A DNA stretch of 64,000 nucleotides from an uncultured virus (IMG/VR IMGVR_UViG_3300034101_006118). Lineage: Duplodnaviria; Heunggongvirae; Uroviricota; Caudoviricetes. The first letter of the stretch is position 1, and every line of letters starts with the position of its first letter. The notes below the pieces were generated by a model, which ran no database searches, was not told where the DNA came from, and was given only the letters and a program-made list of their open reading frames with translations. The translations under genes and the position numbers were made by a program. This document shows positions 14,412-63,150 of the stretch, one piece after another. Where the stretch lies: IMG/VR virus record IMGVR_UViG_3300034101_006118; one strand, 5' to 3'.

Positions 14412-15404
14412 ATGTCACTCGACTTTGAACCACTTGATCTTTCTGAAATTAACAAAGAGGCACAACGAGTTTCCGAGGAGGCCACTTCCAATGCCGGAGG
14501 AGGTGATTACCTTGAGAAATTCGTCAAGATGCCAGATAGGGATGGCTATGTCATGCTCCGCATTCTGCCTCGCAAGAAAGGCGGAAGCGTATGGTGTGCC
14601 ACCCGTGTTCACACCCTTTCCAATCCAGAAACAAGGCAGAAGAAAACCTATCATTGTCCACGCAAGTTGACAGACAGCGACAGGGGTGGTCCACCACGCT
14701 GGCTTGGAGATTGCATTATCTGCAAGTATTACAGCGACTTGTGGCAAAGGTCTGAGAGTCTTTCAGGCAAGGCTCAGGAAGAATTGCAGAATCAAGCCCG
14801 TGCAATCAAGCCTGTCGAAAGATATTACTACAATGTCATCGTTCGTTCTGAAAAGGACAAGGATGGCAATATCAAGAAGAATGTTGGACCCAAGATTTTC
14901 TCTTGCGGCAAAACCACTCATTCCAAGATTATTCGGGCTATGAAAGGTGATGAAGCTGCTGGCGAAAAGCCATTGGGAGACATCACTCATCCCAAGGATG
15001 GTCGTGACTTCCGTGTCGTTAAGAAGGTTGTCAAAGGTGGTGGTGGTATGGAATACCCCAACTACGACAACTCTAAGTTTGAAGACCAGTCTCCCGCTGG
15101 TAGCTTGGATGAGTTGAAGAGTTGGCTTGATAGCCTTCACGATTTGCAAGCCTTAAGGGCAATCAAGTCTGCGGATGAACTCAAGCATGCTCTCAAGGTT
15201 CACTTGGGAATGGTAAGGGAAAGCTCGAACTCAAATGACAGCGATCTGAGCGAGTTCAGAAATACAAATCCAGTTAAGGCCAAGCCTGCTGAAGCGATTC
15301 GTGAAGAACTTGTAGTAAGCACAACTCCTGTTTCCAAGGAAGAAACTAAGGAAAACGAGGATTTGGCTGATGATGACTTCCTAAAAGAACTCAATGGTAT
15401 GTAA
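14412..15404 (+). CDS. T4 gp32-like single-stranded DNA-binding protein
   Basis: LRILP, C..CIIC zinc ligands, RYYYNV, GRDF, PNYDNSKF, acidic C-terminus. Confidence 0.85.
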   Translation: MSLDFEPLDLSEINKEAQRVSEEATSNAGGGDYLEKFVKMPDRDGYVMLRILPRKKGGSVWCATRVHTLSNPETRQKKTYHCPRKLTDSDRGGPPRWLGDCIICKYYSDLWQRSESLSGKAQEELQNQARAIKPVERYYYNVIVRSEKDKDGNIKKNVGPKIFSCGKTTHSKIIRAMKGDEAAGEKPLGDITHPKDGRDFRVVKKVVKGGGGMEYPNYDNSKFEDQSPAGSLDELKSWLDSLHDLQALRAIKSADELKHALKVHLGMVRESSNSNDSDLSEFRNTNPVKAKPAEAIREELVVSTTPVSKEETKENEDLADDDFLKELNGM

Positions 15405-15482: not shown

Positions 15483-16700
15483 ATGGCTAAGAAAAAGGCA
15501 TCTGAAGGCGTTGATGATAGTTTCTTTTGTGATTTGGCAGAGGAAACAGGAGGCGATGTCCTTGATCAAATTGATTCAGTTAAATATTTTGTGGACACTG
15601 GTAGCCTAGCTCTGAACTATATTTGTTCGGGCAAGTTCATTACTGGTGGAATACCCGGTGGCAAACTCACCGAAATTTATGGTCCAAACAGTTCATCAAA
15701 GTCTCTTTTGGGTGCCAATATTCTTTTCGGCACACAGAAGATGAAAGGAGTTCCAGTCCTCATGGACTGCGAAAACAGTGCAAACAAGGAATTCATTCAG
15801 TTGGCAAGCCATTGCAACTTGAAGAGAATTGTGCGACACACTCCAGAAACCTTGGAAGATGTGTTTGCAAAAATGTACAAAGTAATCGAAGCCGCAAGGC
15901 AAAAGACAAGTAATGATGTTCCAATAGTCATTGTTTATGACTCGATTGGAGTAAGTCCTTCTGCCCGTGAATTGCGTGAAGTTGCTCTTCCAGAAAACTT
16001 CACGAAAGAGCAATTCAAGAAGATAGTTGGAGGTAATGAGCAACCCGGTGAAAGGGCCAAAATTTGCTCTAGAGAACTGCGAAAACTCAACACTGTCATG
16101 GAGAAACACAACGCAACAGTTGTGATTCTCAACCAAACTCGTGATAAGATTGGAACTTACATTCCAACCAAAACCACGGCTGGTGGAGGAAACGCTCTTC
16201 CTTTCTACGCTTCTTGCCGTCTTGAAACCAAGACAATGCAGAAAATAGAAAAGAAGTTAAGCGCCAAGAAAAAGAAAATCTTGGGCATTAATGTGAAGCT
16301 CAAGAATGTAAAAAACAAGACTCACAGACCTTTTGTCGAGTCTGAAAATGTCCAGTTGTTGTTCGATAAGGGAATCAATCCAATCAGCGGACTACTTTCT
16401 TGCCTTCTTGATTCAGACAGGATCGAGATATCAGGAACTGGATCATTTAAGGTAAAGCCTGCTTTTTCCAATGGCGAGGAAGTAAAGTTCCGGGCCAGTA
16501 TGGATAGAAATGATGTCCCTATGGATATTCTTCTAAAATGCCCATCACTCATTGATGCATCCTCAACTAAGGAAGTTGAAGATTATCTTGAGCCCTACAA
16601 GGAAGCAATCGCTGGAAGAGCAGAAGATGATTCTGATGTAGAATTGTCAGAAGTCGATTCTCTCAGCGATGATAGCATTGACGAGGAATTGGAAGGTTGA
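15483..16700 (+). CDS. recA: RecA/UvsX recombinase
   Basis: DTGSLALN, GGIPGGKLTEIYGPNSSSKS, IVYDS, LNQTR, GGNALPFYAS, KNK. Confidence 0.92.
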   Translation: MAKKKASEGVDDSFFCDLAEETGGDVLDQIDSVKYFVDTGSLALNYICSGKFITGGIPGGKLTEIYGPNSSSKSLLGANILFGTQKMKGVPVLMDCENSANKEFIQLASHCNLKRIVRHTPETLEDVFAKMYKVIEAARQKTSNDVPIVIVYDSIGVSPSARELREVALPENFTKEQFKKIVGGNEQPGERAKICSRELRKLNTVMEKHNATVVILNQTRDKIGTYIPTKTTAGGGNALPFYASCRLETKTMQKIEKKLSAKKKKILGINVKLKNVKNKTHRPFVESENVQLLFDKGINPISGLLSCLLDSDRIEISGTGSFKVKPAFSNGEEVKFRASMDRNDVPMDILLKCPSLIDASSTKEVEDYLEPYKEAIAGRAEDDSDVELSEVDSLSDDSIDEELEG

Positions 16701-16720
16701 TCGTAACCTTATGATAAATT

Positions 16721-16760
16721 AAAAAACCTCTGACTATGAAAATTAGTCAGAGGTTTTTTT
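16721..16760. terminator. bidirectional intrinsic terminator
   Basis: AAAAAACCTCTGACTA...TAGTCAGAGGTTTTTTT between convergent genes. Confidence 0.85.
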
Positions 16761-16765
16761 GTTAT

Positions 16766-17233
16766 TTAAGAAATCTTGTAATTACCAGCAGAGATTTTAG
16801 TGAAATTATAGCCTTCTTTTTTTAATTCATTTTTGACTTGATTGAAACAACTGTTGATTGCGGCTGTTCCAAATCCTTTCTTGTCGTATCTTCTTTTCAA
16901 ATCTTCAATGCTAACAGTTTTTTTTGAAAGTAGTTTTCTTCTGATATAGTTTTTTATATTTTGATTTGTTGTATTTTTATTTGTTATATTTTGATTATCT
17001 TCTCTGGTAATCATTTTGTTTTCGATAAGAGTGTACTCATATTTTTGATTTTTTTGCTTTGGATTACAGAAGGCTGGAACTAACTCATCAAGATCGATGA
17101 CATTGCCATTTTTCATGTTTACAAGAGACATGTTGGCTTTGAAACTATTGCAGAACTCTATGAGTTGGTTGAAATTTTTTTGATGGGTGAAGAATTTGCG
17201 TTTGTCCTTGAGTTCAATTAAAAGACACTTCAT
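16766..17233 (-). CDS. hypothetical protein, possible C-terminal winged helix
   Basis: 155-aa ORF with GGAG SD. Confidence 0.6.
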   Translation of the reverse strand: MKCLLIELKDKRKFFTHQKNFNQLIEFCNSFKANMSLVNMKNGNVIDLDELVPAFCNPKQKNQKYEYTLIENKMITREDNQNITNKNTTNQNIKNYIRRKLLSKKTVSIEDLKRRYDKKGFGTAAINSCFNQVKNELKKEGYNFTKISAGNYKIS

Positions 17234-17376
17234 GATTTGCTCCGTGATTTAGCTGTTTGGTGTTTGCAGCAAGTTATTTGGGTTTTAATCTTCTGCACAA
17301 CACAATTATAGGTATTTACAAACAAAATACTACTTGCCTTTTACTTTCTCTTATAATAGATGGTGGGAGGTTTTCG

Positions 17377-18399
17377 ATGGATTCATACAAAGAAAAAATC
17401 GATTTGAATTACCTCCGCAGATTTGGCGCAGAAATCGAAATCAATGCTTTTGATTTTAGAAGTAGGCCAGTTGGGCATGGTGAAGGCAAGTTGCCAGAAG
17501 GCACATACTATGTAGCCAACTTGGTTCAAAAATCATCAGAAAATACAGTAAAAATTCACAAATGGAGTTATGATCACAACAACACATCATGGATAATCAA
17601 GCCAGATAGTAGTTGCGGCATTGAAATCTGCACTCCAGTCCTTAAAGGCTGGATTGGTCTAATGGAAACTTGTAGGGTTATTGAGGCTCTTGGTAACGAC
17701 AAGAAGGTAAATGCCGATGACCGTTGCAGTTTCCATGTTCATGTTGATGTGAGCGATTTAACTGAACAAGAAGTGGCAACAATTATTACTTGGTGGGTAA
17801 AATGCGAGCCTGTTTTCATGGATTCTGTTCCAATACTCAGGAAAAGAAATCAATATTGCCAACTTTTAGGTCAGTCGGATATATTTGAAAAAGTAGAAGA
17901 TAGCTTTCATGCAAATGATTATCTAATCAGAAGACTAGGATCTTGCAAATACTATACAATCAACACTTACCATTATCACAACAATAAAAGAAAGACAATT
18001 GAATTCCGCATTATGGATGGAGATTGCTGTCTCGACCCATGGATTGCTAAGAATTATATTCGACTTTTGCTGCATTTCATTGAAAGGTCATTGAAATTTG
18101 GAATGCCAAATAATTATTTTGAGGGAGATAAGTGGTCAGGTTACTGCTGGCTGGACCCCAAAGATGTTTTTGATTTCCTTGGATTCAACAAAAAGACTGA
18201 TTTAAGTCTGGGAGCCAAGCAAGTTTACGAATGGTTTCTTGATAGGCTTCACTTAAATTGTAATTATTCATTGAATCATGGAATAATGGGCAATAACGCA
18301 AGGCGTTATGCCCAGAAGGAAATAGAAGAAATGTGTTTTGAATATGGAAATATGTCGGTCGATTACGATGATATATTTAATTTCAAATATCGTATATAA
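17377..18399 (+). CDS. putative amidoligase (COOH-NH2 ligase type 2)
   Basis: FGAEIE, DSSCGIEICTP, CSFHVHV, TIEFR. Confidence 0.8.
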   Translation: MDSYKEKIDLNYLRRFGAEIEINAFDFRSRPVGHGEGKLPEGTYYVANLVQKSSENTVKIHKWSYDHNNTSWIIKPDSSCGIEICTPVLKGWIGLMETCRVIEALGNDKKVNADDRCSFHVHVDVSDLTEQEVATIITWWVKCEPVFMDSVPILRKRNQYCQLLGQSDIFEKVEDSFHANDYLIRRLGSCKYYTINTYHYHNNKRKTIEFRIMDGDCCLDPWIAKNYIRLLLHFIERSLKFGMPNNYFEGDKWSGYCWLDPKDVFDFLGFNKKTDLSLGAKQVYEWFLDRLHLNCNYSLNHGIMGNNARRYAQKEIEEMCFEYGNMSVDYDDIFNFKYRI

Positions 18400-18422
18400 T
18401 TAAGGCATGGCTATCATGTCTT

Positions 18423-18445
18423 GAAAATCCGTCATTAGATGGCGG
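18423..18445 (+). promoter_or_regulatory. CRISPR-handle-like hairpin in 5' region of ORF 18453
   Basis: GAAAATCCGTC-ATTAGAT-GGCGG, 16/23 identical to repeat 3' handle, ends 7 nt before ATG. Confidence 0.45.
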
Positions 18446-18452
18446 GAGGCTT

Positions 18453-18920
18453 ATGTACCCTTATAAGCAACAGGTTTTGGATGAAATCGCAAAGGAAATG
18501 AAATCCTTGGGAGAGGTTCTTGTTCCTTTTAATTATCCCAAAATGCCTGTAGGCATCTGGGAGGATGATTTGGGAATATTCAAAGCAAGACAAGTCACAA
18601 TCGACGGTTACTCTCTTTTTTTGCATTACCAAAAATCGGATTATGACAATTATTTGATTGAAACTTTGCAAATACACAACCTCAAAAGCCCATTCCTTCC
18701 TTTTAATTTGATTTGTAAAATAGGAAGAAGATTCTTGGGAAGCAAAAATCTTTCCCTTATTGAAATTTACAAAGAACACAGGAAAATATACATTTGGTCA
18801 TTATGTTCAGATAGGCAAGGAAAATCTATGCCTATTCCAGAACAAAACAACACAGAATCATGTGAATTTGAGGGATTGCAATACACTTATATGCAACCTC
18901 AAAATATTGATTTTTTCTAA
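18453..18920 (+). CDS. hypothetical protein
   Basis: GGAGG SD, 155 aa. Confidence 0.65.
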   Translation: MYPYKQQVLDEIAKEMKSLGEVLVPFNYPKMPVGIWEDDLGIFKARQVTIDGYSLFLHYQKSDYDNYLIETLQIHNLKSPFLPFNLICKIGRRFLGSKNLSLIEIYKEHRKIYIWSLCSDRQGKSMPIPEQNNTESCEFEGLQYTYMQPQNIDFF

Positions 18921-19021
18921 ACATGTAGTTCGGTTAGAAGATTTTTTCAATCAGTATTTAATCACAATATATACCCTTGTAGCGTCAACTCAGGACGCTT
19001 TCCTTTAACGAGGGTCTAAAC

Positions 19022-19321
19022 ATGAAAAAGAAAAAAATTCAGTCTCTTATCATAGACCATTTAATGAAACATGGTCAGATTGAAATACTTTTACCAGATG
19101 GCGTTAAATTGGAAATTGGCACAACACAAGAAAATCAAAAAGGCGAACTTGTTAGAAAAGACGATTACTGCTGGGTTATCACATCAAGGGAAGGAAGATC
19201 GACAAGTTTGGATGCTTACAACATGGGTCTTAGGTTCAACGATGATGAAAAGGTTCTTGTTTTTGAAGACAAGTTCATTGACCAAGAAGGCGATCACATC
19301 AGAAGATTTGATGTTGTTTAA
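19022..19321 (+). CDS. hypothetical protein
   Basis: 99-aa ORF with GAGG SD. Confidence 0.6.
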   Translation: MKKKKIQSLIIDHLMKHGQIEILLPDGVKLEIGTTQENQKGELVRKDDYCWVITSREGRSTSLDAYNMGLRFNDDEKVLVFEDKFIDQEGDHIRRFDVV

Positions 19322-19647
19322 TTAATGTGACCATTAATGTTAATTAATTTAAGTTGACCATGATGATTCAATAAAACCTCCAATGTCCCCTCGGCATAAT
19401 TATTCTTGGGGGCTATTGGAGCATTGAACTCAATCCATATAAGAAATCCATTCGGAGAATAGTAAAACCTAGATATGGTTATTCTCACTCCTTTGTTTTT
19501 GATTTGTTCGCCAGATATAATTTCAAGGTGACTGGCATTTTCTTGTACTTGTTTAAGTGCATATGCCATCAACTTTGAACTGTCAATAAAGTGTGTCCAG
19601 TTGGCAATGAGGATTTTTTCCAATTTGTCAGCATCAAAAATGTCCAC
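19318..19647 (-). CDS. hypothetical protein
   Basis: 109-aa ORF, GGAG SD, GTG start. Confidence 0.55.
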   Translation of the reverse strand: MDIFDADKLEKILIANWTHFIDSSKLMAYALKQVQENASHLEIISGEQIKNKGVRITISRFYYSPNGFLIWIEFNAPIAPKNNYAEGTLEVLLNHHGQLKLININGHIN

Positions 19648-32232: not shown

Positions 32233-34308
32233 ATGAACAAGCTGCAAAAAGTGATTTCAAATTTCAATCGTGAACAGTTCAAGGCAATCAATACTGAAAT
32301 TTCTTTCTCAGAATATATTGATCTTTGCTATCAAAATCCAAAACTCATCCGTAATTCATGGCAGACCATCTATGACATGATCATGGAAAAGGGAAGTTAT
32401 CCTGTTGAGGAATACCGCAAGACATATGTCAATTACAAGTTTTTTGATGATCCAGATTGTCCAATCGTTGGCTTGACCCCGATGAAGGACTCTCTCGTCA
32501 AGTTTATCAAGGGAGCGGCAGGCGGATACGGGACAGAACGCAGAATTCTTCTTCTTCATGGACCTGTTGGCAGTTCAAAGTCAACTATTCTCAGACTTAT
32601 CAAGAGAAGTCTTGAGAAATACAGCAAGACTGATGCTGGAGCTTGGTATAGCTTCAAATGGGTGAATCTTCCTACAGGCGCTGATGGGATCTACAACAAC
32701 CCAGAATGCGAATGCCCAATGCACGAACAACCTCTTAAGTTGCTCCCCAAGGAAGTTCGTGGACAAATCATTGCAGATATCAACAGGATTCATGAAGAAA
32801 TCGCAACTCCACAAGAGAGGAGCGATATTTACACTCTTAAATGCAATGACGAACTTGATCCTCTTTGCAATTTCTTTATGAACGAACTTCTGAAGAGATA
32901 CGAGGGTGACCTTCAAAAAGTTCTTGACAACCATATTAAGGTCGTCAGAAAGGTCCATTCTGAAGCCAATCGTTGTGGAATCGCAACATTCCAGCCCAAA
33001 GATGAAAAGAATCAAGACAGCACAGAGCTAACAGGTGATATTAACTTCCGTAATATCGGAAACTTTGGTTCAGACAGCGATCCAAGATCATTCTCTTTTG
33101 ATGGAGAATTCTGTGCTGGCAACAGAGGAATAATCGAGTTTATTGAAGCACTTAAGCTCGATACTGCATTCCTTTATGACCTTCTTGGTGCATCCCAAGA
33201 ACAAAGCATCAAGCCAAAGAAGTTTGCTCAAGTAAGCATTGACGAGGCAATTTTTTCGCACACAAACGATCCAGAATTTCAGAAGCTCAAGAGCAACCAA
33301 TATATGGAAGCTTTCCGTGATCGTACAACCAAGATTGATGTTCCTTACACCCTTAGATGGAACGAAGAGCTAAGGATTCTTGAAAAGGACTATGGTCCCG
33401 GTAAAGTTCGCCAACACATTGCTCCTCACACTCTTGAAATTGCCGCTTTGTGGAGTGTATTGACTCGTCTTGCTGACGATAAAGATGGCAAGATTAGCCT
33501 TGTCGAGAAGGCAGAACTTTATGATGGCAGGCTTCTTGCAGGATGGACTGAAGATTCTGTCAAGGAACTAAAAGACAAGTATCCCGAAGAGGGCATGAGT
33601 GGTGGGATTTCAGTTCGATATCTACAGGACAAGATTTCCAACTGCCTTGCCAACAATCATGACTATGTCAACATGTTCATGGTTCTCAATGAATTGCGTG
33701 ACGGCCTTGACCATTGCAGCTTGCTTACCAATAAGGAGCAAGTTGGCCGTTACATCACTTGTATCGATCTTGCAGTCAAGAAGTTGACTGAAATCTTGAA
33801 AGCGGAGGTTCAGAAGGCTTTGGTCGGCGATAAGGAAGCGATTAAGCGTCTTTGCTCAAACTACATCGATAACCTCATGGCATATATCAACAAGAGCAAG
33901 ATTAAGGATCAGATCACTGGCCAAGACCGCAAGCCAGACGAAAGGCTGATGCGTCAGATTGAGGAAAAGATTCAGATTCCAGATACTGGATGTGATGATT
34001 TCCGCCGTCAGATTGCCGCCTTCATCGGCCATCTTGCTCATGAGGGCAAGAGTTTTCAATGGGATTCCAATCCTAAGCTTCGCAAGGCTCTTGAGGCGAA
34101 ACTTTTCGAGGATGTCAAGGACACCATCAAGTTAAGCGCACTCAATATGAGCGGAGCGAGTGTTGTTGACAAAGACTTGCAAGAAAAGATTGATGCAGTC
34201 AAGACAAGACTCGTTAAAGAGTTTGGATACAACGAGAGAAGTGCAACGGATGTTCTAGAATTTGTTGGCGGAATTTTCTCCCGTGGCGATCTAGCCGAAG
34301 ACGAGTGA
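32233..34308 (+). CDS. prkA: PrkA/YeaG-family AAA+ protein (serine kinase family)
   Basis: LLHGPVGSSKST, CPMHEQPL, PKDEKNQDSTELTG, SDPR, NRGIIEFIE. Confidence 0.93.
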   Translation: MNKLQKVISNFNREQFKAINTEISFSEYIDLCYQNPKLIRNSWQTIYDMIMEKGSYPVEEYRKTYVNYKFFDDPDCPIVGLTPMKDSLVKFIKGAAGGYGTERRILLLHGPVGSSKSTILRLIKRSLEKYSKTDAGAWYSFKWVNLPTGADGIYNNPECECPMHEQPLKLLPKEVRGQIIADINRIHEEIATPQERSDIYTLKCNDELDPLCNFFMNELLKRYEGDLQKVLDNHIKVVRKVHSEANRCGIATFQPKDEKNQDSTELTGDINFRNIGNFGSDSDPRSFSFDGEFCAGNRGIIEFIEALKLDTAFLYDLLGASQEQSIKPKKFAQVSIDEAIFSHTNDPEFQKLKSNQYMEAFRDRTTKIDVPYTLRWNEELRILEKDYGPGKVRQHIAPHTLEIAALWSVLTRLADDKDGKISLVEKAELYDGRLLAGWTEDSVKELKDKYPEEGMSGGISVRYLQDKISNCLANNHDYVNMFMVLNELRDGLDHCSLLTNKEQVGRYITCIDLAVKKLTEILKAEVQKALVGDKEAIKRLCSNYIDNLMAYINKSKIKDQITGQDRKPDERLMRQIEEKIQIPDTGCDDFRRQIAAFIGHLAHEGKSFQWDSNPKLRKALEAKLFEDVKDTIKLSALNMSGASVVDKDLQEKIDAVKTRLVKEFGYNERSATDVLEFVGGIFSRGDLAEDE

Positions 34309-34355
34309 TGATTGAATTAACTTTATAAAAAGGTGACGATCAGTAAGGAGGATTC

Positions 34356-34577
34356 ATGACCATTCAGAACCATTGGTTACAGTCTGCTCAAGTCAAGCAA
34401 CTCATGAAAGAAATTGATGAGATTGCTATGGATATTTGGTCACAAGATGGAACTCTTGGCGATCTGTTTTCTGCCTTGAATGACGATCATACTGATCTTC
34501 TTTTCTCGATGAAGATCAAGGACTTTGCAAGCGATCCAAATGACATGTCATGCGGTATCGAGCTTGTTTCTCCTTAA
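34356..34577 (+). CDS. small acidic hypothetical protein inside the prkA operon
   Basis: Strong AAGGAGG SD. Confidence 0.65.
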   Translation: MTIQNHWLQSAQVKQLMKEIDEIAMDIWSQDGTLGDLFSALNDDHTDLLFSMKIKDFASDPNDMSCGIELVSP

Positions 34578-34583
34578 CCAGAA

Positions 34584-34606
34584 AGGAATCCGTCACAAGA
34601 TGACGG
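34584..34606 (+). promoter_or_regulatory. CRISPR-handle-like hairpin upstream of yeaH
   Basis: AGGAATCCGTC-ACAAGAT-GACGG, 19/23 identical to repeat 3' handle, ends 7 nt before ATG. Confidence 0.55.
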
Positions 34607-34613
34607 TTAAGCT

Positions 34614-35831
34614 ATGCCTCGTCGCATTCATGAAGATTGGCAGCATTTCCGTGATGTAATTTCAGGGCGAATCAGAAAAGCCCTGAAAAAATTCATCAAG
34701 AGCGGACAGATCGTCAAAAATCGTGGAAAAAATGGCAAGATTTCCATTAACATCCCGAAAATTGACATTCCTCATATTGTTTATGGAAATAGTGGCGAGG
34801 GAGTTGGAAGAGGGGATGGTAAAGAAGGAGATGTCATAGGCAAAGATCCGCAAAATGGCAAGGGAAAAGGCAATGGAGCAGGTCAAGGAGAGGCTGAAGG
34901 AATCACAATCAATCTTGATTTGGAAGATGTCCTGAGGTTTATGCAGGACGAACTTCAACTCCCAAATCTAAAGAAAAAGCCAAATGAAATTTACGATGAA
35001 ATTAAAATCAAGTATAACAATATCAGTCTGATAGGACCAGAATCTCTTAGGCACAATAGAAGAACTCTCATGCAGACCTTGAAGCGTCAGGCTGCTGAGG
35101 GAACTCTTGAAAAACTAAATCATGTTGCTGGAATTAAAGACCCAGTCAGAGTTCTACAGCCAATCAATGAAGATAAGAGATACAGACAATTTAACGAAAT
35201 TAAAATACCAAGCAGTAATGCTTTGATTGTCTTTGCCCGTGACGGATCTGGTTCCATGGATCAGGCCAAGTGTGAAATCGTCAGTGATATGGCTTGGTGG
35301 ATCGATGTTTGGATTCGTCGTTTCTATGATCGTGTTGATCGCCTCTATGTTTGGCATGATAGTGAGGCCATGGAGGTTGATGAAAATAAATTTTATAAAT
35401 ATCGATTCGGAGGAGGAACAAATTGCTCCTCTGCTCTTAAATTTATTTCCAAGCAATTTGAGAACAGATATCCTCCAGAAAAGTGGAACATTTATGTTTT
35501 CTACTTTACAGATGGCGACAACTGGGGAGAAGACAATCAGATTTTCATTGATACTCTTGCCAATGATTTTAAGCCTAATGTAGTCAATTTTACGGGTATC
35601 ACACAGATTCTCGCATCATCCTATTCTGATTCAATCAAGCATCATGTTGATGAAGCGATTAAACAAGGCAAGCTTGACAAGGATTGCGTCAGGACTGTTG
35701 CAATAGGTGGTAGTCCAGATGGAAGGTCTTTGTGGACAGCGCCAAGTTTGAGCGATGATAATAGGAATGAGCAAATCATGGAAGCAATTCAACAACTTCT
35801 AGGAAACCCAAGTAAACTATCAAGGGAATGA
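34614..35831 (+). CDS. yeaH: YeaH/YhbH (DUF444) VWA-like protein
   Basis: Gly-rich GDGKEGDVIG, LPNL, DGSGSM MIDAS, GGT, WNIY.FYFTDGDN. Confidence 0.92.
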   Translation: MPRRIHEDWQHFRDVISGRIRKALKKFIKSGQIVKNRGKNGKISINIPKIDIPHIVYGNSGEGVGRGDGKEGDVIGKDPQNGKGKGNGAGQGEAEGITINLDLEDVLRFMQDELQLPNLKKKPNEIYDEIKIKYNNISLIGPESLRHNRRTLMQTLKRQAAEGTLEKLNHVAGIKDPVRVLQPINEDKRYRQFNEIKIPSSNALIVFARDGSGSMDQAKCEIVSDMAWWIDVWIRRFYDRVDRLYVWHDSEAMEVDENKFYKYRFGGGTNCSSALKFISKQFENRYPPEKWNIYVFYFTDGDNWGEDNQIFIDTLANDFKPNVVNFTGITQILASSYSDSIKHHVDEAIKQGKLDKDCVRTVAIGGSPDGRSLWTAPSLSDDNRNEQIMEAIQQLLGNPSKLSRE

Positions 35832-35832
35832 T

Positions 35833-37428
35833 ATGAGCAGTAAATTTTTTCATGGTTCTAGCCTGCTTATGGGTGACAATACCGTTCCCGGTGTTCAACT
35901 TTCAAAAGAACTTAAAGAATACATACCCAAAATTCTTCAAGCATGTCGTGATTGGGGCCTTGATTTCTATCCCACAGTTGTCCAGTTGTTGACATATGAC
36001 GAAATTAGCGAAGTTGCCGCTTATGGTGGTTTCCCTGTCCGTTTTCCACATTGGTCATTTGGGATGGAGTACGAAGAGCTACAGCGTGGATATGAATTCG
36101 GTGGACACAAGATATACGAAATGGTTGTCAATTGTAATCCATGTTACATTTATAATCTTGCTTCAAACACTCTTGCTGACCATCTGACTGTTGTTGCACA
36201 TGCGACAGGACACAATGACTTTTTCAAGAACAATATTCATTTCAGCGCAACTGACACGAATATGATGAATAAAATGGCGAATCATTCTGCTAGGATTCGC
36301 AATTATATGAGCAGATGGGGCAAAGAAAGAGTAACTGAATTCCTTGATCATGTTATGCGTTTAGAAACACTTATTGATGGTTCAGATGCTTGGACAGATA
36401 GGGTTATAAAAGATAGGAATATTCGTGATGAAAGAAAGTACAATAAGCCTCAATTATTGAATGTTGATAAGCAAAGGCTTTACATGGAGCCTTTCATCAA
36501 TACTACTGCATTTCGTAAGAAGCAGAATGAAGATGTTCATGAGAGAGACATAGCAGACGAAATTGGCTTATTCAAGGAACCAACTAAGAACATTTTGGGA
36601 TTTATTCGTGATAATGCTCCATTAAAGCCTTGGCAAGCCGATATTGTCTCTATGCTTTATGAGGAGGCGATTTATTTCTTCCCTCAAAGACAAACTAAGG
36701 TTGGGAACGAAGGATGGGCCTCCTTAACGGACTCTGTAATCATGGCAGAGCAGGGATTCATAAGCCTTGGTCAAAAGTCTGATGATTGCGGCATTGTTGA
36801 ATACGCTGATCATAAAATGGGTGTTCTTGGTGGGAAATACAGTATGAATCCTTACAAGTTGGGATTCTACTTATTTTCTGATATTCGTGAGCGTTGGGAC
36901 AAGGGAAGATTTGGGCAAGAGTACGAAGAATGCACGGACATGCACAAGAAAGAGAATTGGGATACAGGTGCTATGCTCGGCAAGGAAAAAATCTTTGAAG
37001 TCAGGAAGTATTATGATGACCTGACTATGATCCATGAATTCTTTACAGAAGAGTTTTGCCGAAAACAGGAATATTTCCATTGGAAACATTATCCAAACGG
37101 AGAATACAGGCTTGAATCCCGTGATTATCAAAAGATCAAGAAGGGTTTGATGCAGAGGCATGTTAATGGTGGACTTCCAGACATTAGACTCATGGAGCCA
37201 AATTACGGTGGTCGTGGAATCATGATGCTTCAACATTTTTCTGACGGAAGGCCTCTTCACGATCCTTACATTGGTGATGTTTTAAGTTCAATCCGTTTTA
37301 TTTGGAATAATGATGTTATTCTTTCAACAAACTCCGATGATGGTAAGGAAAGGGTTTATTGGCAAAGAGCCAATTACCTTGATATCACGGATAGGTCTAA
37401 ATTCGACAAATCTTTGAATAATTTCTGA
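35833..37428 (+). CDS. spoVR: SpoVR/YcgB-family protein
   Basis: GFPVRFPHWSFG, KIYEMVVN, HATGHNDFFKNN, PQRQTK.NEGWAS, NPYKLG. Confidence 0.93.
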   Translation: MSSKFFHGSSLLMGDNTVPGVQLSKELKEYIPKILQACRDWGLDFYPTVVQLLTYDEISEVAAYGGFPVRFPHWSFGMEYEELQRGYEFGGHKIYEMVVNCNPCYIYNLASNTLADHLTVVAHATGHNDFFKNNIHFSATDTNMMNKMANHSARIRNYMSRWGKERVTEFLDHVMRLETLIDGSDAWTDRVIKDRNIRDERKYNKPQLLNVDKQRLYMEPFINTTAFRKKQNEDVHERDIADEIGLFKEPTKNILGFIRDNAPLKPWQADIVSMLYEEAIYFFPQRQTKVGNEGWASLTDSVIMAEQGFISLGQKSDDCGIVEYADHKMGVLGGKYSMNPYKLGFYLFSDIRERWDKGRFGQEYEECTDMHKKENWDTGAMLGKEKIFEVRKYYDDLTMIHEFFTEEFCRKQEYFHWKHYPNGEYRLESRDYQKIKKGLMQRHVNGGLPDIRLMEPNYGGRGIMMLQHFSDGRPLHDPYIGDVLSSIRFIWNNDVILSTNSDDGKERVYWQRANYLDITDRSKFDKSLNNF

Positions 37429-38030: not shown

Positions 38031-41000
38031 ATGATGTCTGATAATATTATTCTGCCTTACAACTCTAAACTTGCCCCCGATGAGCGTAAGCAAAGGCTTC
38101 TGAACGACACATTCAATTGGTTTGATATGTGTAACGAAGTTTTTTTTGACTTCGTGAAGAATCTGTATGGCGGAGTGAAGCATGAACATTTGATTCTTGT
38201 GAATTTTGCCGAGAAACCCAAGAAGGTTAGCAATAGTAAAAAGCCTAAGAAAAAAGATCAGGAAGTCAACATTCATGTTGAGCCCAATCAAGCCGAATGG
38301 GTTGACAATGCTTGTGCCACATTCTGGTTTCGATTGCAGGCAAAATCAACAGTACAATTAGACCAATCAGTCCAGACAGCAGAAGAGCGTATTCGACGAT
38401 TTCGGGATTATGCTGGTCACGAGCCATCATCATTTGCCAAATCTTATCTAAATGGTAATTATGATCCAGAGAAGACTGAATGGGTTGATTGCAGGCTTCT
38501 TTATGTCAATTTTTGCCGTAATCTGAATGTCAACCTTGATGCGGACATTCGCACAATGGTCGAACACAATCTTCTTCCTGTTCTCCCCGGTCAGGATTTC
38601 AAAACCAACAATGTATTCTCCAACATTTTTGGAGTAGGCAATAAGGAAGACAAGGGTCAAAAAACGAACTGGCTTAACACGGTCGCAGAAGGCCTTCAGT
38701 CCAAGGAAATTTGGAATTGGGATGAGTATCGTGATTTGATATCAAGATCTACTGGATGCTCTACGGCAGCAGAACTGAGGTCTGAGTCGATTGGCAGGCC
38801 AAGCATGCTTGCAGTTGATTTTGCATCTGAGAAATCAGGCCAAATATCACAGGAATGGCTTGCAGAAAGGGTTAAGTCTTTTAGGGCAGCAGCTTCTCAA
38901 AAAAGCAAAATCTATGACATGCCTAATCGTCTTGTTTTGAAGGAATACATTGCTTCAAAAATCGGGCCTTTCAAACTTGAAAGGTGGTCTGCTGCTGCCG
39001 TTTCTGCTTATAAGGATGTCCGCAGCAAGAATAGTATCAATTTGCTTTATTCCAAGGAAAGATTGTGGCGATGCAAGGAAATTGCTCAGATTTTGGTTGA
39101 TAATCCGCAGGTTGCTGAAGCCCAACAGATTCTTGTTAATTATTCTTCTGGTGATACCAATTCATTCACAGTTGAAAATCGTCACATGGGCGATTTGACT
39201 GTTCTTTTCAAGATTTGGGAAAAGATGGATATGGATTCTGGCATAGAACAGTATTCCGAAATTTATCGTGATGAATATAGTCGTGATCCAATTACAGAGT
39301 TGCTACGCTATCTCTACAATCATAGGCATATTTCGGCAAAAACTTTTAGGGCTGCTGCAAGGTTGAATTCTCTTTCGCTGAAGAATGATCGTAAGAAAAT
39401 TCACCCGACTATCAGTGGTAGGACTAGCGTTTCTTTCGGCCATTCAACAATCAAGGGATGCATTACTCCTCCCGATCATATTGTCAAAAATCGAAAAGAG
39501 AATGCTGGAAGCACTGGCATGATCTGGGTTACAATGCAGCTTATCGATAATGGTCGATGGGCGGATCATCATATTCCTTTCCACAATTCTCGCTACTATC
39601 GTGATTTTTATGCTTATCGTGCCGATCTACCGACTATTTCTGATCCTCGTCGTAAATCTTTTGGACATAGGATCGGCAATAATATTAGCGATACAAGGAT
39701 GATTAATCATGATTGCAAAAAAGCATCAAAAATGTATCTTCGCACAATCCAGAATATGACGCACAATGTGGCATTCGACCAGCAGACTCAGTTCGCTGTT
39801 CGTCGTTATGCTGATAATAATTTCACGATTACGATCCAAGCTAGGGTTGTAGGGAGGAAATATAAAAAGGAAATATCAGTTGGTGATCGTGTGATGGGTG
39901 TTGACCAGAATCAGACCACAAGTAACACATATTCTGTTTGGGAAGTAGTTGCTGAAGGGACTGAAAATTCTTACCCATATAAGGGCAATAATTATCGTCT
40001 CGTTGAGGATGGATTTATTCGCAGCGAATGCAGTGGTCGAGATCAGCTTTCCTATGATGGTCTTGATTTTCAGGACTTTGCTCAATGGCGCAGGGAAAGA
40101 TACGCATTTTTATCTTCTGTTGGATGTATTCTCAATGACGAAATCGAGCCTCAAATCCCTGTTAGTGCCGAAAAGGCAAAAAAGAAGAAGAATTTTTCTA
40201 AGTGGCGTGGTTGTTCTCTTTATAGTTGGAACCTCTGTTATGCATATTATCTTAAGGATTTGATGCATGAGAACTTGGCAAATAATCCTGCTGGATTCCG
40301 ACAGGAAATTCTGAATTTTATTCAGGGTTCTAGGGGCGTGAGGCTTTGTTCCCTTAATCACACTAGCTTCCGACTTCTCTCTAAAGCCAAGTCTCTAATT
40401 CATTCATTTTTTGGTCTAAACAATATCAAAGATCCTGAATCTCAAAGGGATTTTGATCCAGAAATTTATGACATAATGGTCAATCTGACACAAAGGAAGA
40501 CCAACAAGAGGAAGGAAAAAGCTAATCGCATCACTTCTTCAATTTTGCAAATTGCCAATAGGCTGAATGTCAGTCGTATTGTGATTGAGAACGATTTGCC
40601 GAATGCAAGTTCCAAAAACAAGGCATCAGCCAATCAAAGGGCAACTGATTGGTGTGCTAGAAATGTATCTGAGAAATTAGAATATGCCTGCAAGATGCTT
40701 GGTATCAGCTTATGGCAGATTGATCCAAGGGACACATCGCACCTTGATCCATTTGTTGTGGGCAAGGAGGCTAGATTTATGAAAATAAAGGTTTCTGATA
40801 TTAACGAATACACTATCAGTAATTTCAAAAAGTGGCATGCAAACATTGCTACAACAAGTACTACAGCACCTCTTTATCATGATGCTTTGAAGGCATTTTC
40901 TTCTCATTATGGAATTGATTGGGACAATTTGCCAGAAATGAAGTTTTGGGAATTGAAGAATGCCTTGAAAGACCATAAAGAGGTGTTTATCCCAAATCGT

Positions 41001-41132
41001 GGTGGTCGCTGCTATTTATCGACATTGCCGGTGACTTCTACATCTGAAAAGATTGTTTTCAATGGAAGAGAGAGATGGTTGAACGCAAGTGATATTGTGG
41101 CAGGAGTTAACATTGTGCTAAGATCAGTATGA
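38031..41132 (+). CDS. cas12i: type V-I CRISPR effector Cas12i
   Basis: 1033 aa; RuvC-I GVDQNQT, RuvC-II IVIENDL, RuvC-III SDIVAGVNI; Cas12i-type motifs FGVGNKED, WADHHIPF, DQLSYDG, DWCAR, TSHLDPF, PNRGGR; adjacent array with AGAAATCCGTC..GACGG handle. Confidence 0.92.
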   Translation: MMSDNIILPYNSKLAPDERKQRLLNDTFNWFDMCNEVFFDFVKNLYGGVKHEHLILVNFAEKPKKVSNSKKPKKKDQEVNIHVEPNQAEWVDNACATFWFRLQAKSTVQLDQSVQTAEERIRRFRDYAGHEPSSFAKSYLNGNYDPEKTEWVDCRLLYVNFCRNLNVNLDADIRTMVEHNLLPVLPGQDFKTNNVFSNIFGVGNKEDKGQKTNWLNTVAEGLQSKEIWNWDEYRDLISRSTGCSTAAELRSESIGRPSMLAVDFASEKSGQISQEWLAERVKSFRAAASQKSKIYDMPNRLVLKEYIASKIGPFKLERWSAAAVSAYKDVRSKNSINLLYSKERLWRCKEIAQILVDNPQVAEAQQILVNYSSGDTNSFTVENRHMGDLTVLFKIWEKMDMDSGIEQYSEIYRDEYSRDPITELLRYLYNHRHISAKTFRAAARLNSLSLKNDRKKIHPTISGRTSVSFGHSTIKGCITPPDHIVKNRKENAGSTGMIWVTMQLIDNGRWADHHIPFHNSRYYRDFYAYRADLPTISDPRRKSFGHRIGNNISDTRMINHDCKKASKMYLRTIQNMTHNVAFDQQTQFAVRRYADNNFTITIQARVVGRKYKKEISVGDRVMGVDQNQTTSNTYSVWEVVAEGTENSYPYKGNNYRLVEDGFIRSECSGRDQLSYDGLDFQDFAQWRRERYAFLSSVGCILNDEIEPQIPVSAEKAKKKKNFSKWRGCSLYSWNLCYAYYLKDLMHENLANNPAGFRQEILNFIQGSRGVRLCSLNHTSFRLLSKAKSLIHSFFGLNNIKDPESQRDFDPEIYDIMVNLTQRKTNKRKEKANRITSSILQIANRLNVSRIVIENDLPNASSKNKASANQRATDWCARNVSEKLEYACKMLGISLWQIDPRDTSHLDPFVVGKEARFMKIKVSDINEYTISNFKKWHANIATTSTTAPLYHDALKAFSSHYGIDWDNLPEMKFWELKNALKDHKEVFIPNRGGRCYLSTLPVTSTSEKIVFNGRERWLNASDIVAGVNIVLRSV

Positions 41133-41310
41133 TGCGAGTGATTGGGTGCCGTAGCAAATTCAGCACCCTCTCGCAATTCGTAAATCTTTAACTTGATTCG
41201 TTTTAAGCGAATCTGCTCTTTGACAAGTAGGTGATTATGGGGATTTGCGGGTGACCCTCTCGCAAAGAATGGCGTAATCTTTTATGCAGTATGGCTTTGT
41301 GAGGTGAGCC
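41133..41310 (+). promoter_or_regulatory. CRISPR leader with direct and inverted repeats
   Basis: ACCCTCTCGCAA at 41165 and 41254; TGCGAG/CTCGCA inverted pair; degenerate repeats lie at the far end of the array. Confidence 0.7.
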
Positions 41311-42002
41311 CTCTCAATGCCTTAGAAATCCGTCCAAAGTTGACGGGGCAGAATTGCTGTGAGTATCCAAAATGGATTTGAGGCTCGCAATGCCTTAGAA
41401 ATCCGTCCTTGGTTGACGGTGTCCTTCAGAGCGAGCAAAGTTTCCCAAGAAATACTCTCAATGCCTTAGAAATCCGTCCAAAGTTGACGGCGTGATTCCC
41501 TTGTGCAGATTGGGCGGCACGGGCACTCTCAATGCCTTAGAAATCCGTCCAAAGTTGACGGCTGATCTCCATTTCTGATTGACGGGCATCAGCGGCACTC
41601 GCAATGCCTTAGAAATCCGTCCAAAGTTGACGGGACAGCGGACCTAAAGCGATGGCGAAAAACTTACAAACTCGCAATGCCTTAGAAATCCGTCCAAAGT
41701 TGACGGTCGTAATAGAGGGGGACTGTTGCCCCGTCCTCAATTGCTCGCAATGCCTTAGAAATCCGTCCTTGGCTGACGGGAAACTGGTTGATATGCTATC
41801 GATTCGAGTGTATTTCTCGCAATGCCTTAGAAATCCGTCCAAAGTTGACGGGTTAGGTGTCATCCCGATCCATCCTACAGGTTGGAGACCTCTCAATGCC
41901 TAAGAAATCCGTCCATAGTTGACGGACGGTACTCTGATAAGGACTGCCAGAACCCAACCGATAGTACTCTCAATGCCTAAGAAATCCGTTCAAAGTTGAC
42001 GG
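41311..42002 (+). CRISPR. CRISPR array, 10 x 36-nt repeats, 9 spacers (35-41 nt)
   Basis: Repeat CTC(T/G)CAATGCCTTAGAAATCCGTCCAAAGTTGACGG starting at 41311, 41384, 41455, 41526, 41598, 41671, 41744, 41816, 41890, 41967. Confidence 0.98.
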
Positions 42003-42042
42003 ATAGACGGAAGAAATGTGGCAAAATTATTTTATTTGCAAT

Positions 42043-42097
42043 TGTAAATAATTTTTTATTACAAGTGTAAATAATTTTTTATTACAAGTGTAAATAA
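42043..42097 (+). repeat. 23-bp AT-rich tandem repeat (2.4 copies)
   Basis: TGTAAATAATTTTTTATTACAAG x2 + TGTAAATAA. Confidence 0.85.
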
Positions 42098-42128
42098 ATC
42101 ATACATCCCCTTACGCTTGGAGAAAAAA

Positions 42129-42755
42129 ATGCAGAGTTTTAGTGAATTCTTAAATAGAAAAAAAGGCAACTCTCTTGCGGAATCAATTGTTCGCAGTGGA
42201 ATTGATTCAGAATTTTTTTGCGAGACTGTCACGAACGCAGCTAGAAGAGTGAATCCCAGAGATCCTCGTGCTGTTGACAGAATTGTTGAAACTGTTTACA
42301 ACGAGTTCCTCGGCAGGATGCTAGGTGGTCTTGGAAATGTTCTGGGAAAGAGTGCTGCTCAATCAACATTCGGCACAAAAACCGCCGCTGCTGCTGGTAG
42401 CAAGGCCCTTCAAGCTGGTCAGTATCTTGGCGGCAAGGCCCTTCAAGCTGGTCAGTATCTTGGCGACAAGGCCGTTCAAGCTGGTCAGGCAATCAAGCAA
42501 AGCGCCCAAAATATTGGCGACAATTACATGCAAGGCGCTCAAGTTGCTCAATTGAATAAGGTCAAAGGTCAAGTTGAAAACATGAAGCAAAACTTGGTAC
42601 AAATTTTAGGAAACTATGGTATGACATCAGGATTTACCGACAATATTAACAAACAACTCGACTCACTGTCTAAAAAGCTTCAGCAAATTCTTGATCAAGT
42701 TTCCCAAGACGCAACTCTCCGTGCTGGTCCCGGTGGAGTTAAGCCTGTAAGGTAA
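42129..42755 (+). CDS. helical protein with 11-aa repeats (capsid-targeting-like N-terminus)
   Basis: MQSFSEFLN; KALQAGQYLGG repeats (33-bp units ~42400-42490). Confidence 0.65.
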   Translation: MQSFSEFLNRKKGNSLAESIVRSGIDSEFFCETVTNAARRVNPRDPRAVDRIVETVYNEFLGRMLGGLGNVLGKSAAQSTFGTKTAAAAGSKALQAGQYLGGKALQAGQYLGDKAVQAGQAIKQSAQNIGDNYMQGAQVAQLNKVKGQVENMKQNLVQILGNYGMTSGFTDNINKQLDSLSKKLQQILDQVSQDATLRAGPGGVKPVR

Positions 42756-42810: not shown

Positions 42811-42846
42811 AGTAAAGCCGTCATCTAGGTGACGGCTTTACTTTTT
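42811..42846 (+). terminator. intrinsic terminator (stem contains CCGTCA/TGACGG)
   Basis: AGTAAAGCCGTCA-TCTAGG-TGACGGCTTTACT-TTTT. Confidence 0.75.
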
Positions 42847-46523: not shown

Positions 46524-47300
46524 TTACTCGTCTTCATCTTCGTCTTCGTCTTCTTCCTCATCTTCCTCATCTTCGTCTTCATATTCTTCGTCTTCTTCCT
46601 CATCTTCCTCATCTTCCTCATCTTCGTCTTCTTCTTCATCTTCGTCATCTTCATCTGATGCCACTACTTCAAAGATGGATTGGTTAAGTTTGCGATTGAA
46701 AGATTCGTTTTGAGTGATGAGTTCGGCAATAAAGTTGATAGTTTCTGGTTGTTCGGCCATTACAGCTATGAATGTTTCGAGAAGTCCACATCTTTTCATT
46801 TCCAAGACTGCATCAAGGACATACTGTGAATTGTCTTTGCAAACTGCGAATGTTTCTTTTAATGCTGCATATGCGTTGGATGGTGATGTTGTGAGTCCCG
46901 ACAATCTTTCGTTGCGAATTTTCTTGGTGAATTCGGCCAAGCTAAGATTTTTGTTCTTATTGAGCCACTCCATGGTTGTTTTCTTGGGATAATCGCTGAC
47001 AACTTTATTGTCTACTCCGTGTGCAGTTTTTGGCATGTTTTCGTAGCCCTTGCCGCCTTTATAGCCAAGACCATCAGAAGCGAATCCTTTATTTGGATCA
47101 GGAGCATCTTTGCCTCCCTTATAAGGTGATACAGATCCTGATTGTTTTACTCCACCTGCATTGGTGGGGAAAGCGCCAAGTTTGGGAGATGATCCATATG
47201 GTCCTTCATAGTCTGGGACAAGTTGTGTTTTTGCTTTAGTGCCTTTTTCATTGGCTTTTTCACGCATGGATTCAATATAACGCTGAAAATTTTGTCTCAT
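46524..47300 (-). CDS. protein with long poly-Asp/Glu tail (scaffold/core-like?)
   Basis: C-terminal ~43 residues almost all D/E; N-terminus MRQNFQRYIESMRE. Confidence 0.7.
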   Translation of the reverse strand: MRQNFQRYIESMREKANEKGTKAKTQLVPDYEGPYGSSPKLGAFPTNAGGVKQSGSVSPYKGGKDAPDPNKGFASDGLGYKGGKGYENMPKTAHGVDNKVVSDYPKKTTMEWLNKNKNLSLAEFTKKIRNERLSGLTTSPSNAYAALKETFAVCKDNSQYVLDAVLEMKRCGLLETFIAVMAEQPETINFIAELITQNESFNRKLNQSIFEVVASDEDDEDEEEDEDEEDEEDEEEDEEYEDEDEEDEEEDEDEDEDE

Positions 47301-47322: not shown

Positions 47323-47345
47323 CCGTCATCTTATGATGGGTTTAT
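47323..47345 (-). promoter_or_regulatory. CRISPR-handle-like palindrome upstream of ORF 47300
   Basis: ATAAACCCATC-ATAAGAT-GACGG on - strand, 17/23 identical to handle. Confidence 0.4.
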
Positions 47346-61686: not shown

Positions 61687-61709
61687 AGCAATCCGTCACA
61701 AGATGGAAG
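61687..61709 (+). promoter_or_regulatory. partial copy of the CRISPR-handle-like motif
   Basis: AATCCGTCACAAGATG, 16 nt identical to 34587-34602; 13 nt before ATG 61723. Confidence 0.45.
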
Positions 61710-62524: not shown

Positions 62525-62755
62525 ATGGCACTTATATCATTCAAAGACTGGCGTAATAAATTTGACGAGGCTAGTCCCACAACTCGTTTGAGGGATGAGA
62601 TCATGAGGGGCAATCACCCCATGTCAGCCGGTGTTGCGATGTCAAGATCAACTCCACATCCTGAATTTGTTAAGAAGGCAATTAAGGAATTTGGCACACC
62701 AGATCATCCTAAGAAAAAACGAAAAAGTAAGCGCAAAAAGAAAAAAGGTCAATAA
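62525..62755 (+). CDS. small basic protein (capsid-targeting-like N-terminus)
   Basis: MALISFKDWRNKFDEA ... KKKRKSKRKKKK; TAAATA 4 nt upstream. Confidence 0.65.
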   Translation: MALISFKDWRNKFDEASPTTRLRDEIMRGNHPMSAGVAMSRSTPHPEFVKKAIKEFGTPDHPKKKRKSKRKKKKGQ

Positions 62756-63150
62756 TGCTGTCTTTTCACGAATGGAGAGCAAAAAGGCTTGATGAAGCTG
62801 CCAAAAAAGGTAAGCCAAAAAAGGCTCCTGTGGCAAGGCATGACATTGAAACATGGCTTAAGGAAATAGAAAGTCTTAAGAAAGACCTAGAAGAACTTAA
62901 AAAAGCCAAGAAAATAGCCGCTCAAAAACTCGCTAGACTGGCAGATATTGAAAAGCTTGATTCTAAGAAACCCGATTCTAAGAAACCCGATTCTAAGAAA
63001 CCCGATTCTAAGAAACCTGATTCTAAGAAACCTGATTCTAAGAAACCTGATTCTAAGAAACCTCTTAAAAAATATGTTTCTAAGAAGATTAAGAAAAAAG
63101 GCGACACAAGATTAAAAAATCCGTCAGAAATTGACAAAGAGAAAAAATGA
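62755..63150 (+). CDS. Lys-rich protein with (DSKKP)7 (capsid-targeting-like N-terminus)
   Basis: MLSFHEWRAKRLDEA; TAATG coupling to previous gene. Confidence 0.7.
   Translation: MLSFHEWRAKRLDEAAKKGKPKKAPVARHDIETWLKEIESLKKDLEELKKAKKIAAQKLARLADIEKLDSKKPDSKKPDSKKPDSKKPDSKKPDSKKPDSKKPLKKYVSKKIKKKGDTRLKNPSEIDKEKK
62959..63063 (+). repeat. 15-bp coding tandem repeat x7
   Basis: GATTCTAAGAAACC(C/T) x7. Confidence 0.95.

Follow-up and report, generated by a model that had tools for sequence, protein, structure and literature searches.

Why should a phage that encodes its own Cas12i carry an isolated copy of the CRISPR RNA (crRNA) handle of that enzyme immediately before an ordinary gene? The question is raised by a stretch of 64,000 nucleotides (nt) from an uncultured virus of the Caudoviricetes (IMG/VR record IMGVR_UViG_3300034101_006118), called the window below, which is part of a huge phage genome with its own Cas12i (type V-I). 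The element concerned lies at positions 34584-34606, in the leader of the gene yeaH, and is, by its sequence, a solitary copy of the handle found in the mature crRNA of the phage's own Cas12i. Further copies stand before other genes of the window and in related phages, and they may be elements of messenger RNA (mRNA) leaders on which Cas12i docks and covers the ribosome site.

The Handle in the yeaH Leader

In Cas12i2, the repeat region of the crRNA is described as 23 nt long, consisting of a 6-nt 5′ tail, AGAAAU, and a CCGUC...GACGG stem-loop (Huang et al. 2020, PMC7567891). According to the same report, the enzyme cuts between U(-24) and A(-23), its catalytic residues being Lys18, His485, and His486. 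This reaction requires A(-23), and G(-22) and A(-21) are also important to it; mutation at any of the three abolishes or reduces cleavage, and bases of the crRNA loop are contacted sequence-specifically (PMC7567891).

The window encodes the corresponding system. The cas12i gene (38031..41132, + strand; 1033 amino acids, aa) matches the Cas12i2 structure 6ltp of the PDB with an E-value of 1e-96, and the processing residues are kept as K20, H513, and H514 (aligned to Cas12i2 K18, H485, and H486). These three columns are invariant in the Cas12i of two relatives. The CRISPR array (41311..42002, + strand) comprises 10 repeats of 36 nt, in which the 3′ 23 nt form the handle AGAAATCCGTC-N7-GACGG with the loop CAAAGTT.

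The yeaH copy, AGGAATCCGTCACAAGATGACGG, lies on the + strand, with the start of cas12i 3.4 kb and the array 6.7 kb downstream. It is identical to the handle of its own array at 19 of 23 positions; three of the four mismatches fall in the loop, and 15 of the 16 non-loop positions agree. The element has an AGGAAU tail with the change A(-21)G, a CCGUC/GACGG stem, and a 7-nt loop, and its predicted fold is the handle hairpin. It is oriented in the sense of yeaH (DUF444; 34614..35831, + strand; Pfam E 2e-65), its 3′ end falling 7 nt before the ATG at 34614. An open reading frame (ORF) of 73 aa (34356..34577, + strand) stops 36 nt before this ATG, and the handle occupies the gap.

No Shine-Dalgarno (SD) sequence is present between the hairpin and the yeaH ATG; the sole SD-like motif, AAGGA, overlaps the 5′ tail of the handle. 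In the yeaH leaders of relatives, an ordinary SD (agaggtg type, e.g., agaggtgattcATG) is found at the position of the window handle. A second small hairpin is also predicted in the yeaH leader of the window (34571-34588), where the end of the 73-aa ORF (CUCCUU, anti-SD-like) would pair with the AAGGA at the handle tail.

The copy occurs unchanged in near-identical strain contigs and is confined to them. Its exact 20-mer was met in two contigs of one strain group in the viral scan and, in the metagenome scan, in three contigs of the strain group and in one unrelated GC-rich match; since these were the only matches, no array with the loop ACAAGAT emerged from the scans. No handle precedes yeaH in the other 65 of 68 yeaH-bearing loci (816,762 bases scanned). 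The presence of a decayed handle in the yeaH leader of G004 or G002, two relatives described below, was considered and rejected, as the alignments are no better than those of shuffles: the score was reached by 1235/5000 and 4579/5000 shuffles in local alignment and by 1944/2000 and 1782/2000 in global alignment, respectively.

Enrichment and Further Copies in the Window

The excess of handles over shuffled sequence is real, and the counts exceed chance expectation. The full 23-mer was scanned outside the array against 300 dinucleotide shuffles. With at most four mismatches, one match was obtained against a mean of 0.0; with at most six, five against 0.16; and with at most seven, eight against 1.36; none of the 300 shuffles reached any of these counts. 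When the 16 non-loop positions were considered, one match was found with at most one mismatch (0.0 expected) and four with at most three (0.2 expected), and again each count was reached by none of 500 shuffles. A covariance model was built from 23 handles, with no solitary window copy among them, and its E-values are rough. On the window it listed the yeaH copy at E 0.014, followed by 18982 on the - strand (0.28), 18423 (0.46), 61687 (0.51), and 63115 (1.5). Only the yeaH copy is secure on its own. A further hit at 14515-14545 (E 0.16) lies inside the ORF 14412-15404 and was treated as chance. A collection scan with the pattern AATCCGTCANNAGATG, which has 14 specified bases, returned at least 116 unrelated matches and was uninformative.

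The copy at 18423..18445 (+ strand) is degenerate, with 16/23 identity and the tail changes A(-23)G and G(-22)A. Its stem is kept by a U-G pair, and it folds into the handle hairpin. The 3′ end lies 7 nt before the ATG (18453) of a 155-aa ORF, and the 3′ arm overlaps a GGAGG SD; the G002 orthologue of this gene has no handle. Another degenerate copy, at 61687..61709 (+ strand; 16/23), forms a shifted-register hairpin, UCCGUC/GAUGGA, with a 4-nt loop and ends 13 nt before the ATG of a 164-aa ORF (the gene at 61723). The 16-mer 34587-34602 of the yeaH copy is identical to 61690-61705. To judge from these features, the 18423 and 61687 elements are older, worn copies of the same Cas12i handle.

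Two further sites are look-alikes. The one at 47323..47345 (- strand), which is followed after 22 nt by the ATG of an acidic 258-aa ORF, matches 17/23 (six mismatches) and appears decayed, with a broken stem; its fold is no better than those of shuffles (z -0.06), and the covariance model does not list it at E ≤ 10. The other, at 63115..63137 (+ strand), is weak, lies inside the 3′ end of the ORF 62755-63150, and is probably a chance match.

Re-reading of the sequence confirmed the coordinates and identity counts that the first-pass annotation had given for the 34584, 18423, 47323, and 61687 copies (19/23, 16/23, 17/23, and 16/23), as well as its statements that all four are intergenic and co-oriented with the next gene and that an ATG follows the 34584 and 18423 copies, both with the handle hairpin kept, at a distance of 7 nt. 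Six sites had been listed altogether. Those at 34584, 18423, and 61687 are handle-like; the one at 47323 arguably is not, its stem being lost, and the two described as weaker relatives, 42818 and 18981, are terminators and not handles. The former belongs to an intrinsic terminator (42811..42838, + strand) in which U5 comes after a stem of 14 bp (-21.3 kcal/mol, z -6.35), although a consensus scan left it unlisted; the latter, which follows the ORF 18453-18920, is a hairpin (18981..18999, + strand) that was listed as terminator-like.

The loops of the solitary window copies read ACAAGAT, ATTAGAT, and ATAAGAT. The four window copies share an A at loop positions 1 and 6 that is absent from the array, so they probably derive from one another and not each from the array. 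At the processing determinants (-23 to -21) the tails read AGG (34584), GAA (18423), and AGC (61687), and in none is the set A(-23)/G(-22)/A(-21) intact. The 13 nt upstream of five window copies match the 5′ part of the repeat at 3-6 positions, and no repeat neighbours them. In comparison with the Cas12i2 handle, the window copies have the same 23-nt layout, and the window enzyme aligns to Cas12i2 and keeps its catalytic equivalents; unlike that handle, they are solitary, lack a spacer-repeat context, carry another loop, and are changed at -23, -22, or -21.

Handles in Related Phages

The relatives compared are fragmentary contigs. Three of the closest (G002, G003, and G004), with 88-89% YeaH identity, encode Cas12i proteins that are 41-46% identical. 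G002 (225 kb) and G003 (168 kb) overlap and belong to a single phage, which is extended by G011. The G002/G003 array uses the same handle with a different loop, and the AGAAAT tail is kept by all repeats of this array and of the window array. Outside the array, lone handles with at most 2/16 mismatches number five in G002 (0.045 expected) and seven in G003 (0.005 expected), with 0 of 200 shuffles in each case. G011 contains six handles, one of them present in neither G002 nor G003, which brings the distinct sites of this phage to 11. Two further phage fragments, G007 and G010, contain three and two handles, respectively. Reversed-pattern controls gave no match in any of the relatives.

A comparison of relatives with and without cas12i had been proposed with the first-pass annotation, and its outcome agrees with a link to the enzyme: lone handles occur in the cas12i phage with its 11 sites, whereas ten yeaH-bearing relatives in which Cas12i had no match (2.36 Mb in total, the 595-kb LR756511.1 among them) contain no handle, a single stemless match being about the number expected by chance. 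For Cas12i itself, a single-protein search of viral contigs revealed no relatives, and a search with a three-sequence alignment returned only the three known contigs. The cas12i gene of G004 (16393-19395) is full-length, 41% identical to that of the window, and followed by a terminator.

By sequence comparison, huge phages of this clade that encode Cas12i have solitary handles scattered through their genomes, typically close to or at a transcript's 5′ end and 7-31 nt before a start codon.

Placement and Conservation of the Handles

Among 15 distinct sites outside the window, 10 lie in the leader of a gene in sense orientation, and in nine of these ten the handle is followed by the start codon at a distance of 11-31 nt. 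The tenth (G002:49401) shares its leader with a second handle, to which it lies upstream in tandem. This pair (G002:49369-49423, - strand) consists of handles 9 nt apart, behind a TTGACT-17-TAGAAT promoter-like site and before a 120-aa ORF. By the author's tally, 16 of 18 sites are sense to the adjacent gene, against the 50% expected for neutral intergenic insertion (P 7e-4). A sigma-70-like promoter, called by consensus match only, ends within 30 nt upstream at six of the relatives' 16 sites compared with a 5% background (P about 1e-4). With a promoter at this distance, transcription would begin at or just before the handle.

The position of one handle is shared across phages. The gene that follows the handle at G002:214278 is an orthologue, 42% identical, of the window gene at 61723 which follows the 61687 copy, and a handle before both genes implies that this position has been conserved across deep divergence. 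The G004 orthologue of the same gene has no handle.

What is kept is the mature 23-nt handle and nothing more of the repeat: the upstream 13 nt match the repeat 5′ part at 0-6 positions, so retention of the full 36-nt repeat was rejected. Within the handle, the tail changes of 20 copies are unevenly placed, with 11 at -23 to -21 and one at -20 to -18. Stem changes comprise five wobble pairs, one compensatory change (U-A), and two breaks, and 98.3% of cells are paired. Wobble pairing is confined to the sense strand, and conservation to one flank, AGAAAT. Both features speak against a symmetric DNA operator such as the palindrome offered as an alternative at first pass. Taken together, the pattern supports the view that the handle copy behaves as a sense-strand, RNA-level feature of gene leaders.

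One site of G003 has an unusual setting. In the region G003:145139-145250, a perfect handle and a TTGATT-17-TATGAT promoter-like site are contained in an insertion of about 85 nt relative to G007, flanked by ATGATT direct repeats. This handle, G003:145196, points into a convergent gene at its 3′ end, antisense to it, and has no downstream ORF.

Proposed Docking of Cas12i on mRNA Leaders

How could a handle in this position act? The chance that the copies are Cas12i-docking elements in mRNA leaders, covering the ribosome site, is judged to be about even. Cas12i would grip the AAU tail and the 5-bp stem of the leader handle as it does on a crRNA, and the approximately 30 nt after the handle, with the ribosome-binding site and the AUG, would sit in the guide position. 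With these signals so placed, binding of Cas12i should block initiation, and translation of the downstream gene would fall while free Cas12i is available. In yeaH, the SD-like AGGA itself belongs to the tail that Cas12i2 contacts; at 18423, GGAGG overlaps the 3′ arm of the handle. The window copies are altered at -21 (yeaH and 61687) or at -23 and -22 (18423), so that processing is expected to be weak or absent and docking would proceed without cutting; indeed, Cas12i processing of these copies looks unlikely. We infer that Cas12i binds the handle RNAs and that binding represses translation. A broader proposal is possible but doubtful: Cas12i of this clade may have a second job as an RNA-binding regulator of a handle-led mRNA regulon, docking without cutting and hiding the ribosome site, with the expression of yeaH and other genes coupled to the amount of crRNA-free Cas12i.

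Several observations weigh against docking as the function of these copies. The yeaH copy is young and could be neutral; the closest relatives lack it, among them two with cas12i and 88-89% YeaH identity. The remaining window copies are individually marginal (E 0.3-1.5), and by the consensus rule none of the five window copies has a sigma-70-like promoter within 30 nt upstream. The loops ACAAGAT and ATTAGAT differ from the CAAAGTT of the array, and loop bases may matter, since they are contacted sequence-specifically in Cas12i2. Covariation in the stem is not significant, being reached by 54 of 500 shuffles. Some of the relatives' sites lie outside leaders: no gene is present downstream of G003:145196, G003:150197 is inside an ORF, and both G010 sites follow stop codons. 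Moreover, cas12i and the handles do not always occur together. G004 has cas12i yet no array, repeat family, or handle in 57.8 kb, and G007 and G010 have handles and no cas12i in the available fragments (15-21% complete).

Alternative Explanations

Some of these observations would be expected if the copies were neutral scars, that is, handle-sized repeat pieces which spread by recombination or small insertions, survive in intergenic DNA, and decay without any function. This explanation is rather unlikely. Copies are gained and lost between close relatives, as the young yeaH copy illustrates, and the ATGATT-flanked insertion around G003:145196 resembles such an event; within the window a decay series leads from 34584 to 18423 and 61687 and then to 47323, and the shared non-array loop states suggest copying from one another. 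Scars, however, should not be sense-oriented at 16 of 18 sites, nor be in excess just after promoters, nor keep one position before orthologous genes that are only 42% identical. The selective retention of AAU(-20 to -18) and of the stem, while -23 to -21 drift, is also hard to reconcile with loss of function, and in yeaH the handle took the place of the ancestral SD, which should be costly if the copy were inert. A different role for transcribed handles, which we regard as improbable, is that of decoys resembling RNA anti-CRISPRs (Racrs), which would soak up a rival Cas12i of a competing phage or of the host and thereby blunt interference. Solitary repeat units after promoters, and a Racr co-transcribed with a protein gene (RacrIC1-AcrIC5), are on record (PMC10651486), and the handles of G007 and G010 without cas12i in the available fragments would suit this role. 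The phage's own Cas12i and array, however, work with the same handle, so that the phage itself would be disarmed by decoys, which would also have no need of a tight spacing to ribosome sites. No array with the Cas12i handle was found in 185,579 prokaryotic species (one genome each), where the 81 matches are all single and about as many as chance would give by the author's estimate.

The handle and the sequence after it could also constitute an orphan guide, a working crRNA against a DNA target such as a sibling phage without the insertion or a promoter, which it would repress as CreR and crlRNAs do. The G003:145196 copy speaks for this idea, having a perfect handle, a promoter-like site, and no downstream gene, and its "spacer" matches the handle-less orthologous locus of G007 at 27 of 30 positions. 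We nevertheless consider orphan guides most improbable. For each of 15 handles, the 32 nt that follow have no match among the DNA compared beyond themselves and orthologous loci, which leaves the first-pass suggestion of non-array guides without support; other matches are at most 21 nt long (mostly 14-18), with E ≥ 0.006, like those of true spacers. Cas12i1 and Cas12i2 use a TTN protospacer adjacent motif (PAM), which may also hold for the window enzyme. The yeaH match to G004 (27 nt, three mismatches) starts at guide position 6, so that positions 1-5, on the PAM side, lie outside it, and the flank reads TGG and not TTN; at G003:145196, the TTG of G007 is one base out of register. A variant in which the handle would be a scar exactly at the former PAM, with a guide fitting the siblings, is not supported, register and PAM being at odds with it in both pairs. 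Very unlikely, finally, is an element independent of Cas12i, either a hairpin which spans the gap between the AUG and a distant SD (AAGGA at -30), as in phage T4 genes 38 and 25, or a palindromic operator, CCGTCA-N5-TGACGG, for a protein such as the ribbon-helix-helix protein encoded at 59985. The yeaH leader, with no SD between hairpin and ATG and with AAGGA just 5′ of the stem, has the layout of such a bridge, and the palindrome is also present in the 42818 terminator. That second palindrome, however, is a plain 14-bp terminator stem, and the stem variants of the handles are wobble pairs on the sense strand only. An element of this kind would also account neither for the 15/16 positions shared with the Cas12i handle, the one-sided AGGAAU tail included, nor for the handle family in the relatives.

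Relation to Known Systems

Viral solitary repeat units (SRUs) and Racrs were described by Camara-Wilpert et al. 2023 (PMC10651486), who cite Faure et al. 2019; the SRUs are characterised there as "not associated with cas genes" and as mostly matching the CRISPR subtype of the host. The handles resemble them as lone, intergenic CRISPR-repeat copies in a phage, presumably co-transcribed with the adjoining DNA and often just after a promoter in the relatives, and a Racr may likewise share its transcript with a protein gene (RacrIC1-AcrIC5; PMC10651486). They differ in several respects. The window handle agrees with that of the phage's own Cas12i and array, at a distance of 3-7 kb; the copies comprise no more than the 23-nt mature handle, occur several times per genome, and stand 7-31 nt before start codons; and the window copies have no promoter directly upstream (0/5), compared with 6/16 in the relatives. 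Given the phage's own cas genes, the lack of a host-repeat match in our searches, and the lack of an upstream promoter in the window, the element is best called a self-directed, leader-embedded SRU variant.

Docking of Cas12i on mRNA leaders has its closest analogue in engineered switches, which demonstrate that such a principle can work. In the system called CARTRIDGE, Cas proteins, including an RNase-dead AsCas12a, are reported to repress translation when the crRNA is placed in the untranslated region at the 5′ end (5′-UTR) (PMC10115826), and a bacterial version of a Cas-responsive 5′-UTR switch is based on Cas6f (PMC13478208). In both cases, as proposed here, an mRNA leader carries the RNA scaffold of a Cas protein, and translation falls when that protein binds. 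The engineered switches, unlike the window elements, are man-made and run in mammalian cells or model bacteria, and Cas12i does not appear among the proteins named in the consulted portions of PMC10115826. The window case would be a natural one.

Regulatory crRNA-like RNAs form a third group for comparison. The RNAs tracr-L, CreA/CreR, and crlRNAs guide the effector to partly matching promoter DNA. No promoter target was found for the sequences after the handles in the DNA compared, and the action proposed here is, unlike theirs, on the handle-carrying RNA itself. Both consist of a degenerate repeat outside the array, with a role, proposed in the case of the handles, in regulation and not in immunity (10.1101/2024.12.27.630466).

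A literature search yielded no paper on lone handles of a phage's own Cas12i in mRNA leaders, the supplementary SRU tables of PMC10651486, which might list type V-I units, lying outside that search. Viral solitary repeats are known as decoys against host immunity; here the copies match the virus's own effector and lie in ordinary gene leaders against ribosome sites. Should Cas12i bind them, a class 2 effector would be exerting sequence-specific control over the translation of genes of its carrier, which would be new, and the leaders would be a natural counterpart of the engineered Cas-responsive 5′-UTR switches. They would also provide natural, compact Cas12i-responsive RNA switches and would reveal which handle positions serve binding and which cutting. 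Even as inert scars, the copies would record the spread of repeat fragments within phage genomes.

Neighbouring Genes and Minor Features

The genes around the element are arranged as prkA (32233-34308), the 73-aa ORF (34356-34577), yeaH/DUF444 (34614-35831), spoVR (35833-37428), a 125-aa ORF, and the 1033-aa ORF. The prkA/small ORF/yeaH/spoVR module (32233-37428), a bacterial stress and sporulation trio, thus stands directly upstream of cas12i. The prkA-yeaH-spoVR module was found again in 67 viral contigs, and in many relatives additional DNA of 1.5-3.5 kb interrupts the spoVR match.

Between cas12i and the first repeat, the array leader (41164-41266) contains two extra copies of the repeat 5′ part, CCCTCTCGCAA, at about 41166 and 41255. 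These copies without a handle are the mirror image of the solitary handles. Directly beyond the last CRISPR repeat, 3.1 copies of a 23-nt unit, AATTTTTTATTACAAGTGTAAAT, occupy 42025-42097, ahead of the ORF 42117-42755.

Elsewhere in the window (59698-60248), a homologue of ribosomal protein S21 (Pfam E 4e-13) precedes a small ribbon-helix-helix/DUF6364 protein, the stop of the one overlapping the start of the other. In-frame coding tandem repeats, acidic and rich in Asp/Glu, are present at 46527-46656 in the 258-aa ORF, and a 15-nt unit is repeated in frame seven times at 62958-63063, inside the ORF 62755-63150.

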